Shown one piece after another: positions 1,106 through 6,401 of a stretch of 48,194 nucleotides of DNA (position 1 is its first letter; every line of letters starts with the position of its first letter). The DNA is from Psammoneis japonica. Its lineage: Eukaryota. The translations under genes and the position numbers were made by a program. The stretch lies in NCBI GenBank assembly GCA_008632985.1, contig QPGO01000016.1:778840-827033 (forward strand), written 5' to 3'. Below the pieces are notes generated by a model. That model was not told the origin of the DNA and did no database searches. It saw only the letters and a list, made by a program, of their open reading frames with translations.

Positions 1106-1536
1106 TGCAGCATGCCTCGCTGCTGGACAACACGGCGAGACCGTGCACAAGCCTCTTGCACGTGGCAACGTGGCATTGTCAACACGCACCTGGGAAGCAC
1201 GACCACAGGAGGGCGTGGCTCTGGGTCTCAGGCAATTCCAGAAGGATGCCAAGAGAGCATCCGTGTGAAGCACACTGGCCCGTCGTCTGGCCCACGATGG
1301 CAGCGTGATTCCACACGATGACATCACTCGTGCACAGCGCATGATGGCTTGATTCGCACGATCCACAATGCGAATGCACGATCGATTTGATGCGATCCAA
1401 ATGCAAACGAATGGGGATTTGGCAAGATTCCCCATTCGCACGATCCCATTTTCTCTGCTCTAAACCAGCTCACAATTTCCACAACGACAAAGTCGCAACA
1501 CATCTTCTTTTCAGCGCCTGGCACATGCACAGGGCA
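1106..1536 (+). repeat. 5' LTR
   Basis: Gap-free alignment to 5971-6401. Confidence 0.92.
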
Positions 1537-1630
1537 CAGCAATGTCACTCCCGCATGTTGTGCGAGGTGACGAAATCTGCAGAAACGAAACTGTGAAATG
1601 TTGGCAGGACCGACAAATCTTAAAACGACC

Positions 1631-2673
1631 ATGAAGAAGTGGATTGAGCCGCCGACTCCGTTCGCACGGCGGGAGAAGAAAGAGCTGCAGCAAGGCGAGT
1701 GCCAGACGTTCAAGCTGCGCAACAACCCCACTGATCCGGATGGTCCAATGCATGAGATGGGCATTCTGCACCTTTCCACAGCTACATGCGAGACACTCCC
1801 AATCTTTCTGCGCAACGTGGATCGCGTGCACGAAGGACAAAACATCACACTGGGCCAGCGAAATTTGCCCTCATGCGTGACCTGCTGCAGGGTGATGCTC
1901 TGACATCATTTGACAATGCCACTGACAAGCAGGCATCTCAAACCAATGCCACGCACGCAGCATGCATCGCGAAGCTAAAGGAAAGCATCTTCCCACATGG
2001 GGCGGCACCATTGCAGAAGCGTCATCTGAGGCGCTTTGTGTGCAAGCCCGCAGAGGTTTCTGCTCGTGACTGCGTCGCAAGGGCTGTTGAAATTAACGGC
2101 TGTGTCTCTCAGTTTCCACCCGTGACGGAGGATGGAGGAGCACCGGCACCATTGCCCAATGACGAACTGTGCGACATGTTCGAGTGCGGTGTGCCGAACG
2201 CATGGCAGAAGTTCATGACGCTACAGAATTTTGACCCGTTGGCACATGCTGTCGCCGAATTTGCACAGTTCTGCGAGTGCATCGAGCAGGTTGAGCTTGC
2301 CAAAGGCAACCTGGACCAACGTGCTGAGGTTCCACGCAAGCGGGGATGTAGAACAGACAATCCTGAGTCGTTGATCACGACCCAACGGAACACCCAGAAG
2401 TCGTGCATGCTGCATGGGACTAACTGTGGACATCATGCGGAGGATTGCCGTCAGCTCAAGCACCACGTGAAACGTGTCAAGACTGGACATTCCAACAACG
2501 GAGGCAGCAAACCCAATGCAAAACCTCGGAATGAGGAAGATGTCAATGCTCTCATCGGATCGAAGGTCGAGGAGTTCTTTGCCAACGCTCAGAAAAAGTG
2601 CAAGGCACGCGAGGAGGAGCTCAATCACTTTCGCTGCCTCAACTTGAGTGATTCCGAAGACTCGGACACCTGA
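1631..2673 (+). pseudogene. gag: Gypsy gag with a frameshift near 1850
   Basis: MKKWIEPP...GQNITL continues in another frame as GPAKFALMRDLLQGDAL...; C-terminal knuckle-like CMLHGTNCGHHAEDC; no Tyr in the 295-aa frame. Confidence 0.8.
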
Positions 2674-2805
2674 GAAGGGGGCCGACACGACACAGGCAGT
2701 TTCAATGCATCAGATGAATGTGCAAATGAACAACTGAATTGCCACAGCACACGTGTTGCAGGCCAATCCCGCAAACGAGTTAAAAAGACTCATCTCACTC
2801 CAATC

Positions 2806-5800
2806 TTGTTTGTGGCTGTGAATGCTGAACATGGCAAGGGCAAGACTCAAACCATTGGGGCACCACTGGACAGTGGCGCCAGCAGCACTCTACTCGACAG
2901 TCGACACTGTAAACGTCTGCGAAGCCATTCAACGGCTGAGACAAACTGGACTACGGTAGCAGGCTCGTTTAGTGCGTCTAACGACTGTGCCGTTAAATTT
3001 CGGTTACCAGAATTATCCGAAACTGCAGAACCCAAACATACCGTCCACGTACACAACGGAAAGTTGGGCAAGTACGATATGATTATTGGACGTGACATTC
3101 TGGAGACACAAGGCATTGACATTGTCTTCTCTAAACAGATGATAGAGTGGCCATTGGTCAATGGAGAAGTGCCAATGAGGCACGTAGATGCTGCGGTAGA
3201 AACCTCCTTCTATCTTCAAGATCCAGAAGCCTTATCTTCGGAAACCGACCGGATTTCGCGTATTTTAGACGCTAAGCACGCGCCGGCCTGCCTCAAGGAC
3301 ATAACGCGAGGGGCAATAGAACTTTCTATAGTTCAACAAAACGACCTTTTGGCACTATTGAAACGCCATGAGTCCTTGTTTGATGGGACATTAGGAGAAT
3401 GGAAGGGAGAACCCTGCCATGTCCAACTCAAGGAGGGTGTAGAACCATACCACGCTCGTCCGTATAAAGTACCTCGTGCGTACGAAGCTACGCTGCGTAA
3501 AGAAGTAGAACGCCCAGTGCGCATTGGTGTTCTCAAACGCGTCAACCGATCCCAATGGGCAGCTCCATCATTTATCATGCCGAAGAAAGATTTAACGGTG
3601 CGCTTTATTGATGATTTCAGAGAGCTGAATAAACGGATCAAGCGATTGCCTTGTCCGATTCCTCATGTCCAAGATGTGCTGCTCAAGCTCGAAGGCTTCA
3701 TGTGGGCTGCATCGCTGGATTTAAATGTGGGCTGTTGTCATGTCCGATTGGATGCTGACAGCAAGAAGCTCTGCACGCTCATCTTCCCGCGGGGCAAGCA
3801 TGAGATGCAGGCATTGCCCATGGGATTGTGCAACTCGCCAGACATTTTCCAAGAACGCATGTCAGGCTCATTTGAAGATCTGTCGTTCGTTCGAACGCAC
3901 TTAGATGACCTTCTCGTCGTGACGAAAGGCACCCACGAAGATCACCTCAACAAACTTGAAGAAGTTTCATTGAGGGTCCAGAAAGCAGGACCAAAAGTCA
4001 ACGCAACTAAATCTCACTTCTGTCAAACCCAATTGGAGTGCTTGGGTTGTCTGGTCAACAGAGACGGAATGTGACCAATGCCTGATGAAGTCGACGCCAT
4101 TGAGCGAATCGTGACCCCAGCCAATGAACGCAACCTGCGCTCATTTGTTGGCATGGTGAGCTGCTGCCGTGACACGTGGATTGGACGTTCTGAAGTCTTG
4201 GCTCCACTGACACGACTCGCAAGCAAAACTGTCAAGTGGGAGTGGACGTCCGTTGAAGACGAGGCGTTCAAAACCGTCAAACGGGTGATGTCGGATGATG
4301 TTTTGTTGTCACATCCTGATTTCAACAAACCCTTTGAGACACATGCCGATGCCTCTAAATGTCAATTGGGAGCAGTTGTGTCCCAAGACAATGAACCCAT
4401 CGCCTTTTACAGCAGAAAGCTTGACAGTGCGCAATTAAACCACACAACAACGGAGAGAGAATTGCTCGCCATTGTGGAGATGTTGAAAGAATTTCGAATG
4501 ATTCTCCTTGGTCATCGCACAATTGCATGTGCTGATCATAAAAATCTTACGCACAAAGTGTTCAACACCGAGCGCGTCATGCGCTGGCGGTCAACATGCG
4601 AAGAATGCGGTCCCGAATTACGCTGTGTCAAGGGCACCCATGACCCAGTCGCTGACGCTCTTAGTCGCCTTCGACTGGCACCCAGCTTGCCTTCCGAGGC
4701 CAACCCAGATGTAAAAGACACTCCATTGAGTCGTCCTTTGCATGAAGCTTTTAATGCAGATGCGCAAGATGAGATGTCTCTGCCTGTTGGCTTCAAGCGC
4801 ATTCAAAAAGCACAACAAAAGGACAAGTGCCTGCTCTCACGAGCTGAGGACTCGTCCGACTGCTCCATTTGCACGTGTCGTGGGGGAGGGTCATCACGAC
4901 AGTTAATCTGTCATAAGGACAAAATCGCAGTGCCACAGTCATTGCAGGTTCCGCCAACTGAATGGTGCCATGAGACATTGTGTCATCCAGGTGAGACACG
5001 TGCGGAAACATCCATTGCCCAGCACTTCCACTGGCCTGGCATGAGGTCTACGGTGCATTCTACGTGCGTCAAGTGCGATCGATGCCAGAAGACAAAACGC
5101 CAAATGCAGCATTGTGGGAAGCCACCAGAAAAGGTCGCAGAGATGATTCCATGGGAGACTCTGTGCATGGACATGATGGGGCCATGTAAAATTCAAAGAC
5201 GCGGAAAGGACACTTTGCAATTGTGGGCAGTCACAATGATTGACCCAGCAACCGGGTGGTTCGAGATTAAAGAAGTGTCTGCGAAACGTGCAGACGTCGC
5301 AGCAAACGTCGTGGAACAAACGTGGCCATGCAGATGTCCGTGGCCAACCCAGGTGGTTTGTGACCGTGGGACAGAATTCATGGCAGAATTTAGCCAGATG
5401 ATTAAAAATGACTGTGGGATTTTGAAGAAATCCACAAGCAAACGGAATCCACAGGCGAATGCCATGGTGGAACGTGTGCGCCAGACACTTGGTGACATGG
5501 TGCATTCCTTTTCAGTGCAGGATGTGGAACTGGACGAAGATGACCCATGGAGTGGCATCCTCTCCGCAGTGGCCTTCGCCATTGGAGCTGCGGTGCATGC
5601 GACCACGCGTGCAAGTCCCGTGCAGTTGGTCTTCGGACGCGATGCGGTTTCATCTGTTGCCCATCGTGCCAAGCAGAAGTGCATAGAAACCAGAAAGCAG
5701 AAGCTTGTCCACTCAAACAACAAGCGTGAAAATCAGAAACGCAAGGAGCACCAACACACCGCAGGGCAATTGGTGCTTGTCAAACAGGAACAATCCTCTA

Positions 5801-5970
5801 AATGCGGTTCTGACAGCTGTGCAGGACCCGCCAGAGTTGTCCGTGTGTGTGACAACGGCACGTTGCATGTCCAGAACGGAGCGCTGATGGATGCGTGCAA
5901 TCTACGGCAGATTGCACCCTGTCACCAGCAAGACATCCTGTCACTTAACGGCCCTGATCATGGGGGAGTG
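2806..5970 (+). pseudogene. pol: Gypsy pol (aspartic protease, RT, RNase H, integrase) with in-frame TGA at 4072-4074
   Basis: LDSGAS protease; DFRELNK, LPMGL and HLDD (for YxDD) in RT; DAS..LGAV and ERELLAIV in RNase H; H-x4-HPG...CxxC, D, DRGTEF and NPQANAMVER in integrase. Confidence 0.95.
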
Positions 5971-6401
5971 TGCAGCATGCCTCGCCACTGGACAACACGG
6001 CGAGACCGTGCACAAGCCTCTTGTGCATGGCAACGTGGCATTGTTGACACGCACCTGGGAAGCACGACCACAGGAGGGCGTGGCTCCAGGTCTTGGGCAA
6101 TTCCAGAAGGATGCTAAGAGAGCATCCGTGTGAAGCACACTGGCCCGTCGTCTGGCCCACGATGGCAGCGTGATTCCACACGATGACATCACTCGTGCAT
6201 GGCGCGTGATGGCTTGATTCGCACAATCCACAATGCGAATGCACGATCAATTTGATGCGATCCAAGTGCGAGCGAACAGGGATTTGGCAAGATTCCCCAT
6301 TCGCACGATCCCATTTTCTCTGCTCTAAACTGGCTCACAATTTCCACAACGACAAAGTCGCAACACATCTTCTTTTCAGCGCCTGGCACATGCAAAGGGC
6401 A
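5971..6401 (+). repeat. 3' LTR
   Basis: Gap-free alignment to 1106-1536, preceded by the polypurine tract. Confidence 0.92.

Follow-up and report, generated by a model that had tools for sequence, protein, structure and literature searches.

In-place hypermutation at TpA steps as the probable source of terminal-repeat divergence in a young retrotransposon of the diatom Psammoneis japonica

A 5.3-kb Ty3/gypsy-type long terminal repeat (LTR) retrotransposon lies at positions 1106-6401 of a 48,194-nucleotide stretch of the Psammoneis japonica genome (contig QPGO01000016.1, forward-strand positions 778,840-827,033; assembly GCA_008632985.1), which was analysed as a whole and is called the window below. 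The differences between its two LTRs are probably the product of a hypermutation process that targeted TpA dinucleotides of this young element in place. The element would have landed as an essentially unmutated copy, and a process acting on the chromosomal DNA would then have converted A:T to G:C almost only at 5′-TA-3′ steps. Because TpA is its own reverse complement, an event on the top strand gives TG and one on the bottom strand gives CA, and the two LTRs would have drawn either outcome independently, leaving TG in one copy opposite CA in its partner. Each LTR would have had about 90% of its TA steps converted while other LTR positions gained about 0.4% change per base, so that the pace of the process would exceed that of the background by a factor of hundreds. 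Alongside, CpG would decay more slowly to TpG or CpA, and old blocks in which both processes are complete would contain neither TA nor CG.

The 5′ LTR (1106-1536) and the 3′ LTR (5971-6401), recovered as a pair by both a repeat search and blastn (94% identity), were aligned without gaps over 431 bp each. They differ at 25 bases, 24 of which are transitions. The differences comprise eight TG/CA swaps (1121, 1159, 1180, 1222, 1229, 1335, 1412 and 1466 in 5′ LTR numbering, as are the positions that follow), five CG/CA differences (1162, 1341, 1360, 1384 and 1405), one CA/TA difference (1250), two AA/AG differences (1401 and 1407) and a single transversion (1530); swaps thus account for 8 of the 17 events. 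All eight adjacent double differences between the LTRs pair TG with CA. When 25 differences were scattered at random over 431 sites, the mean number of adjacent pairs was 1.4 and eight or more arose with a probability of 3e-5 (200,000 trials), before the further demand that every pair be TG/CA. Only one TA remains in the 5′ LTR (1461) and two in the 3′ LTR (6115 and 6326), while CG is retained in both LTRs at 26 sites. In full, the pyrimidine-purine (Y-R) steps of the pair were CA/CA at 47 sites, TG/TG at 31, CG/CG at 26, CA/TG at 8, CA/CG at 5, CA/TA at 1 and TA/TA at 1. Our recount equals, class by class, the 8, 5, 1, 2 and 1 differences given by the original prediction, which had also reported one and two remaining TA in LTRs where CG was still plentiful.

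Two sets of control repeats were examined in the same way. The first comprised 24 terminal direct-repeat pairs of related elements from metagenome contigs (13,924 aligned bases), in which we counted 63 transversions, 1 TG/CA swap and 125 further transitions. Two of these pairs are long duplications, and several consist of identical overlaps of 120-127 nt that probably arose from wrap-around during assembly. The second, a tandem repeat within the coding sequence of a window host gene, showed 2 swaps, 44 transitions and 37 transversions.

The swaps could also have arisen from methylated CpG, if a CG present at insertion became TG in either LTR and CA in its partner. CpG decay does occur here: positions 1341 and 1375 are CG in 92-93% of the depth of other copies of the element, and the old blocks of the window are depleted of CG too. 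However, when a CpG-origin model was fitted to the LTRs' own counts (26 CG/CG and 5 CG/CA), the loss per LTR was 0.088 and 0.12 swaps were expected, against the 8 that were seen (P ~1e-12). In addition, the swap sites are scattered along the full LTR amid retained CGs. We therefore regard a CpG origin of the swaps as very improbable. A TA-origin model fits the LTR pair, with 17 TA at insertion and a fraction of 0.91 lost per LTR. Seventeen TA in 431 bp correspond to a TA observed-to-expected ratio (o/e) of about 0.6, which falls within the range of 0.50-1.18 covered by 78 related metagenomic elements; this baseline, in which 0 of 78 fell below 0.5, is a biased set, made up of the elements that best matched intact motifs.

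The coding part of the same copy provides further evidence on the ancestral state. The features of the element and its insertion site are as follows.

1102-1105, plus strand: left copy of the target-site duplication, CACC (sequence read)
1106-1536, plus strand: 5′ LTR with ends TG...CA and one TA left (repeat search, alignment)
1756-2670, plus strand: gag-like open frame without a Pfam family, stop TGA at 2671-2673 (open reading frame, Pfam)
2674-4071, plus strand: protease and reverse transcriptase frame, in the frame of gag, stop TGA at 4072-4074 (Pfam RVT_1, E 2.9e-16; homologues)
2891-3630, plus strand: unmutated island in the element (about 45 TA, TA o/e about 0.9)
4075-5970, plus strand: RNase H and integrase frame (Pfam RT_RNaseH_2, RT_RNaseH, Integrase_H2C2 and rve)
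5962-5968, plus strand: purine run GGGGGAG just 5′ of the 3′ LTR, likely the polypurine tract (sequence read)
5971-6401, plus strand: 3′ LTR with two TA left (repeat search, alignment)
6402-6405, plus strand: right copy of the target-site duplication, CACC (sequence read)

A single reading frame runs from 1756 to about 5970 and is interrupted by two TGA codons only (2671 and 4072). The order of the pol domains recognised by Pfam is reverse transcriptase, RNase H and integrase, and the homologues have aspartyl protease families upstream of the reverse transcriptase. By reading the sequence, with no comparison to tRNAs made, we saw no tRNA-complementary TGG start after 1536. If the end of the element lies one base earlier, the left target-site duplication would instead be the 5-bp ACACC at 1101-1105.

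The reverse transcriptase frame was compared with 60 of 120 listed homologues (identity no higher than 56%), and columns with at least 70% conservation were considered. It deviates from the consensus in 46 of 227 such columns. A single TA>TG (11) or TA>CA (9) change accounts for 20 of these deviations, CG>CA for 1 and CG>TG for 0; the others are attributable to other transitions (4), to transversions only (9) or to no single change (12). The RNase H-integrase frame, compared with 150 representatives, deviates in 9 of 101 conserved columns, of which 6 are TA-type, 1 is CG>CA and 2 are transversions. When both frames are combined, 26 of the 55 deviations from conserved residues are reverted by a single TA>TG or TA>CA change, 2 by a CpG change and 4 by other transitions, a distribution that also argues against a CpG origin. 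The same holds for individual residues. Among 25 columns of pol in which Tyr is the majority residue, the window has Tyr in 3, Cys in 12, His in 6 and another residue in 4, whereas control residues were largely kept (Arg in 28 of 34 columns, Phe in 19 of 22 and Trp in 12 of 15). In the YxDD box, His (CAC at 3898) has taken the place of Tyr. Conserved Tyr codons have become TGY or CAY, conserved TTA and CTA Leu codons TCA and CCA, and ATA Ile codons ATG; TA steps that span codon borders were altered as well, so that Ile, Thr and Met codons following a T now encode Val or Ala. Over the 1156 codons of the element outside the island, Tyr makes up 0.17% compared with 1.37% in host frames, and Cys plus His 9.0% compared with 3.3%. 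Within the island, 2.0% of codons are Tyr.

The element family is highly repeated, with a summed contig depth of about 10,000-38,000 versus about 65 over the single-copy flank 219-654 (run X1), and contigs of other genomic copies could be compared with the window copy. The variant rows used were 40 of 339 listed, a selection dominated by 2292-2668, where a contig of run X3 lies; the adjacent rows 1335/1336, 5674/5675 and 2635/2636 were set aside as dinucleotide states. Other copies carry TA where the window has TG or CA in 14 rows, with depth shares of 0.04-0.99 and one row in X3 only. They carry CG at such places in 10 rows, mostly in at least 92% of the depth. All X1 contigs placed on the 5′ LTR agree with it at 1335/1336; copies with TG would map to the 3′ LTR instead. 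Across run X1, 314 of 328 variant places are transitions, a count in which direction relative to the window is mixed and C>T/G>A changes and CpG decay are included. These states indicate that TA loss is family-wide and varies among copies, and that the window copy has lost some CpGs too. In the gag region, both CpG outcomes are present relative to other copies (7 CA and 5 TG rows, a raw tally that includes the adjacent rows 1336 and 5675).

Taken with the model, the coding part of this copy supports TA ancestry at the eight LTR swap sites. The proposal that ancestral TA had been resolved independently to TG or CA in each LTR is supported by the models and by the Tyr columns of the coding part. 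Its accompanying caveat, that some swaps might stem from CG, was right in that CpG decay acts on this element (for example at 1341 and 1375), but with 0.12 swaps expected such decay does not account for the swaps.

The changes struck both strands. Of the 26 TA changes assigned in the coding part, 15 are TG-type and 11 CA-type (binomial p 0.56), and over the whole window TG and CA are equally enriched (o/e 1.46 and 1.43). Because both outcomes occur in one copy, editing of one strand of RNA or of minus-strand cDNA cannot produce them. The order of the two types along the coding part showed no significant coordination, with 10 runs versus 13.7 expected over the 26 sites (z = -1.5). At 3577-4345, same-direction runs of assigned TA changes were observed (7 TG-type, 5 CA-type and 5 TG-type), which could hint at short strand-coordinated tracts.

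The element inserted once. In addition to the target-site duplication, one contig of run X1 links position 1072 to position 6401 through 26 other letters and contains the target site once, as expected of a paralogous empty site. Together, the duplication and the empty-site-like contig indicate a single insertion event, and hence that the differences between the LTRs arose after integration. DNA outside the element is just as free of TA: the flank 1-1105 holds 1 TA, and none occurs between 6326 and 8670. The presence of both directions of change, the single insertion and the TA-free non-element flanks together indicate that the change occurred on DNA, on both strands and after integration, as had been predicted.

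Editing of RNA or cDNA before integration would need a further step to make the LTRs differ, either recombination of two differently edited parents or later gene conversion. The island at 2891-3630 is mosaic-like, as if it had come from template switching between edited and unedited RNA, and transcripts of mutated copies might be mobilised in trans. However, the 15 TG and 11 CA sites within one copy, the evidence for one insertion and the non-element DNA at 1-1105 and 6402-10900, which is as TA-free as the LTRs, all speak against this route. Two diverged parents fit poorly with LTRs that differ by one transversion, and a copy whose YxDD Tyr is His could not, in its present state, make its own cDNA. 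We consider pre-integration editing to be very unlikely, although somewhat less so than a CpG origin of the swaps.

ADAR-type editing of RNA before reverse transcription had been argued against in the original prediction, and the coding part agrees, since 11 of the 26 changes are sense-strand T>C. ADARs are known as metazoan enzymes. They act on RNA, so that only A>G changes of the sense strand would be heritable through a retrotransposon, and here non-transcribed-looking flanks are affected as well. ADAR hyper-editing of double-stranded RNA derived from repeats yields A>G changes and prefers a 5′ U/T neighbour, as summarised in a recent preprint (bioRxiv 10.64898/2026.01.13.699255).

Per LTR, we estimated about 2.4 events per TA step, 0.09 per CpG step and 0.0045 per other base, where the TA rate assumes the 17 TA given for the time of insertion by the model. 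TA loss was thus about 26 times faster than CG loss, and about 270 times faster per base than change at other LTR bases. Only 3 of the 25 differing bases fall outside Y-R steps, and the divergence between the LTRs, naively 5.8%, falls to 0.7% without Y-R steps and to 0.23% when transversions alone are counted. Naive LTR dating therefore overstates the background divergence about 8-fold. These values agree with the earlier proposal of a young element, a fast process and inflated LTR ages.

The depletion of TA extends beyond the LTR element and is organised in blocks, which contain the following features.

1-10900, no strand assigned: TA-poor block A, including the non-element flanks 1-1105 and 6402-10900, where CG is low too (dinucleotide counts)
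27100-45900, no strand assigned: TA-poor block B, with 1 TA per 186 bp outside its island (dinucleotide counts)
37041-37372, no strand assigned: second young repeat pair, 37041-37194 versus 37219-37372 (alignment)
37520-45556, minus strand: second retroelement, resembling a long interspersed nuclear element (LINE), with four long frames and an Exo_endo_phos endonuclease as its sole recognised domain (open reading frames, Pfam)
39335-40092, no strand assigned: unmutated island in the LINE-like element (TA o/e about 0.85, CG o/e 1.36)

Outside its island, block A contains 1 TA per 226 bp, whereas the gene region 11001-27000 has one every 30 bp. The block borders near 10.9, 27.1 and 45.9 kb are sharp. 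In affected DNA, TA o/e is 0.02-0.27 and CA and TG o/e are 1.3-2.1; the internal region of the LTR element outside the island has a TA o/e of 0.12-0.27. CG o/e is 0.0-0.3 in the old blocks. Between 27500 and 35500, hardly any TA or CG is left (0-3 TA in each 500 bp and, with two bins excepted, 0-4 CG) and TG and CA o/e are about 2; this region is probably very old transposon debris and the end state of TpA loss combined with CpG decay. The kinesin gene and other host genes of the window have a TA o/e of 0.3-0.7 and normal CG. Its restriction to transposon-rich blocks, with neighbouring genes spared, makes the process behave as a mutagenic genome defence.

The second young repeat pair shows the same kind of difference as the LTRs, with five TG/CA swaps, four CA/CG differences, one TA/CA, one TA/TG and no transversions. 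In the LINE-like element outside its island, Tyr makes up 0.49% of codons, Cys 3.9% and His 5.1%. In both young repeat pairs (the LTRs and 37041-37372), each of the nine differences between CG and another dinucleotide is CG/CA, with CG/TG never seen (two-sided binomial about 0.004, applied post hoc), which may be due to chance or to a local strand bias of CpG decay.

Both islands have retained CG as well as TA, with CG o/e of 1.05 at 2891-3630 and 1.36 at 39335-40092, whereas the surrounding DNA has lost 75-95% of its TA. Their borders are sharp, and the island at 2891-3630 is in frame and continuous with its mutated flanks. Four readings can be offered for the islands: local chromatin may have protected them, an unmutated copy may have donated them by gene conversion, templates with and without the mutations may have recombined, or the assembly may be a mosaic.

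Several observations weigh against TpA-targeted hypermutation in place. If the process acted uniformly in place, the two islands of about 750 bp, with their normal TA content inside mutated elements, would not be expected. None of the 78 metagenomic relatives shows TA depletion, in a set chosen for intact motifs. TA ancestry at the eight swap sites was inferred from the model and the coding part, not from other copies of the LTR. The window copy has lost CpGs, as judged by the 10 listed rows in which other copies show CG, and at 2354-2355 a CpG-derived CA in the window faces TG in about 20% of other copies, a pattern by which a minority of the swaps could be CpG-derived. With these points taken into account, we still hold hypermutation of the integrated element at TpA to be the likely explanation.

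The depletion could also be an artefact of sequencing or assembly, for instance if a modified base were miscalled in long reads and left unpolished in repeats. Repeats, in which polishing works least well, show the strongest depletion, the islands might be patches that were polished, and only 53% of sampled words of 900-6600 were found in run X1. Against this, a 6867-nt X1 contig (depth 64.5) equals the TA-poor single-copy sequence at window 1-740, which holds 1 TA, with 0 differences, and another X1 contig matches 6365-6530 with 0 differences; X1 is possibly the assembly's own source data. Long clean contigs of this kind require accurate reads, and they support a depletion in the real DNA. 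X1 contigs of other copies also show TA, TG or CA at the same places in differing shares, and unrelated public proteins share the replacement of Tyr by Cys or His. An artefact thus seems about as improbable as a CpG origin of the swaps.

Among public homologues of pol, P0382, P0393 and P0436 contain no Tyr, compared with a median of 3.5%. In columns where Tyr is the majority residue, Cys or His was found in 9 of 9 cases in P0382, 6 of 6 in P0393, 2 of 3 in P0436, 4 of 4 in P0451, 10 of 16 in P0026 and 9 of 16 in P0035. P0488 is likewise among the public pol homologues with little or no Tyr and with Cys or His in such columns. Judged from these protein sequences, the same signature exists in other elements in public data.

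Other observations in the window concern the surroundings of the element and the host genes. Inverted repeat arms at 716-974 and 10399-10659, about 75% alike, bracket the LTR element, a tandem array and 2.5 kb of TA-free DNA. Contig depth over 655-1090 is 1,400-4,300, which indicates that the arms belong to another repeat family, in which the LTR element landed. The tandem array (6538-7900), just 3′ of the 3′ LTR, has an 8-base period (spacings of 8, some of 12) and contains TG and almost no CA, TA or CG. A microsatellite at 11028-11085, with TA every 4-5 bases, is intact just beyond the border of block A and marks an abrupt stop of the process. The kinesin gene (19516-26553, minus strand) encodes a CENP-E-like motor and a coiled coil and has an internal tandem duplication at 23128-23954; among the 120 matches listed for the motor, the two named ones are Cylindrotheca fusiformis (69%) and Pseudo-nitzschia multiseries (68%), and the best of the others is 83% identical. 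The best named matches of a PAPS-phosphatase-like gene are a pelagophyte-like alga and diatoms (36-38%). Many long open frames occur in all six frames of the TA-free blocks 1-10900 and 27100-45900. Since TAA and TAG require TA, such blocks have TGA stops only, which leads to long false open frames and false gene calls. Pfam found no family in ten long frames of the TA-free blocks except Exo_endo_phos in the LINE-like element; the frames tested were eight in 8.1-10.1 kb and 28.7-33.0 kb, together with 26963-27934 and the frames of the LINE-like element that gave no match.

The signature itself is not new, and the original prediction re-derived a process that has already been described in the chlorarachniophyte Bigelowiella natans. 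In that work (Mettrop et al., bioRxiv 10.64898/2026.01.13.699255), hypermutation of TpA to TpG or CpA was observed de novo in viral DNA integrated in the B. natans genome. Two viral inserts followed in mutation-accumulation lines gained 231 mutations, of which 230 were A>G/T>C; all GC-biased mutations there are stated to be at TpA, and only some lines were affected. The rate was about 6e-7 per site per generation in the inserts and 3.5e-10 elsewhere (bioRxiv 10.64898/2026.01.13.699255). The preprint also reports that TpA-poor coding sequences of B. natans are enriched for reverse transcriptase and DDE domains, and it proposes, without a test, an ADAT2-like deaminase. The likeness to the present window is close: the changes are almost only A>G/T>C, they occur at TpA with a strand-dependent outcome of TpG or CpA, they affect chromosomal DNA, and they lead to TpA depletion with CpA/TpG enrichment. 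In both cases the changes are confined to foreign or mobile DNA and the rate exceeds the background by orders of magnitude; the B. natans genome mutates normally elsewhere, and the host genes of the window are spared. There are also differences. B. natans belongs to Rhizaria, whereas the present window is from a diatom. The B. natans targets, one insert from a giant virus in single copy and one from a virophage, still have a TpA Rho of at least 0.45, and those in the window are multi-copy LTR and LINE-like retrotransposons with near-zero TA. De novo events were seen directly in B. natans, whereas here there is a historical record only, with the LTR pair as an internal clock. What is new here is a second lineage, retrotransposons at saturation, the internal clock, blocks with sharp borders and a pair of unmutated islands.

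The words diatom, stramenopile, LTR and retrotransposon are absent from the text of bioRxiv 10.64898/2026.01.13.699255. We found no report of the TpA signature in diatoms in the open-access literature and bioRxiv, and a term look-up did not find it in two diatom transposon papers (PMC2806351 and bioRxiv 10.1101/2025.10.24.684338).

Fungal repeat-induced point mutation (RIP) is also a DNA-level, dinucleotide-specific and transition-only defence that acts on both strands of integrated transposons and can spill into adjoining DNA. However, RIP makes TpA from CpA and so enriches TA, whereas in the window TA is lost and CA and TG are enriched (o/e 1.3-2.1). As for a dependence on duplication, a single-copy insert was struck in B. 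natans. APOBEC3 editing resembles the present case in that a deaminase-type hypermutation is fossilised in LTR elements (Knisbacher and Levanon 2015, PMC4866542). Unlike the A:T>G:C changes on both strands after integration seen here, it consists of C>U deamination on minus-strand cDNA before integration and leaves G>A on one strand.

As for the agent, an adenine-to-hypoxanthine deaminase acting at TpA, such as a TadA/ADAT2-like enzyme working on DNA and guided by the silent chromatin of mobile DNA, is a candidate that we put forward tentatively, at a little short of even confidence. The natural target of TadA/ADAT2, A34, follows U33 and thus forms a UA step. We hypothesise that enzymes of this type might underlie the present signature. 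Some diatoms can be cultured clonally and modified genetically, so candidate deaminases could be tested there. Thymine might instead be the target, if T at TpA in silenced DNA were oxidised to 5-hydroxymethyl- or 5-formyluracil, which mispairs with G and would give T>C on either strand. Because TpA is palindromic, A>G and T>C cannot be distinguished by sequence at this step. Some protists carry out TET/JBP-type thymine oxidation, and 5-formyluracil promotes T>C mutations. Nevertheless, to our knowledge such oxidation is not known in diatoms, and the window offers nothing in its favour. We regard thymine oxidation as improbable, although less so than editing before integration. The authors of the B. 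natans study prefer adenine deamination, with an ADAT2-like candidate (bioRxiv 10.64898/2026.01.13.699255). A DNA activity (A-deamination) has been reported for amphioxus ADAT2 (PMC10354150).

Three further candidates were rejected. Selection against UpA in transcripts cannot account for the loss of a catalytic Tyr in a dead copy. GC-biased gene conversion is not dinucleotide-specific and was dropped, as were ultraviolet-induced TpA photoproducts, for which we know of no reason for a restriction to transposon blocks.

Until the 2026 preprint, no natural rewriting of A:T to G:C at TpA in eukaryotic chromosomal DNA was known, and that report concerned one species. A second, unrelated lineage in which retrotransposons are saturated would make TpA hypermutation a general defence rather than a curiosity. 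It is conceivable, and we propose it with slightly less assurance than the deaminase, that TpA>TpG/CpA editing is an enzyme-driven genome defence common to distant lineages of the stramenopile-alveolate-rhizarian (SAR) group, namely Rhizaria and diatoms, that it is the main killer of retrotransposons in diatoms, and that it is aimed by chromatin state and not by repetition. Aiming by chromatin state, if it applies, would explain the sharp borders and also why the islands, each about 750 bp long, have undergone neither TpA loss nor CpG decay. In genomes with this process, LTR dating would be inflated (here about 8-fold), repeat consensus sequences and Kimura-distance landscapes would be distorted, homology searches would miss transposon proteins with recoded Tyr, Ile and Leu codons, and TA-free DNA would yield long false open frames in six frames. 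If the proposal is true, diatoms would possess a natural adenine base editor that acts on double-stranded chromosomal DNA.

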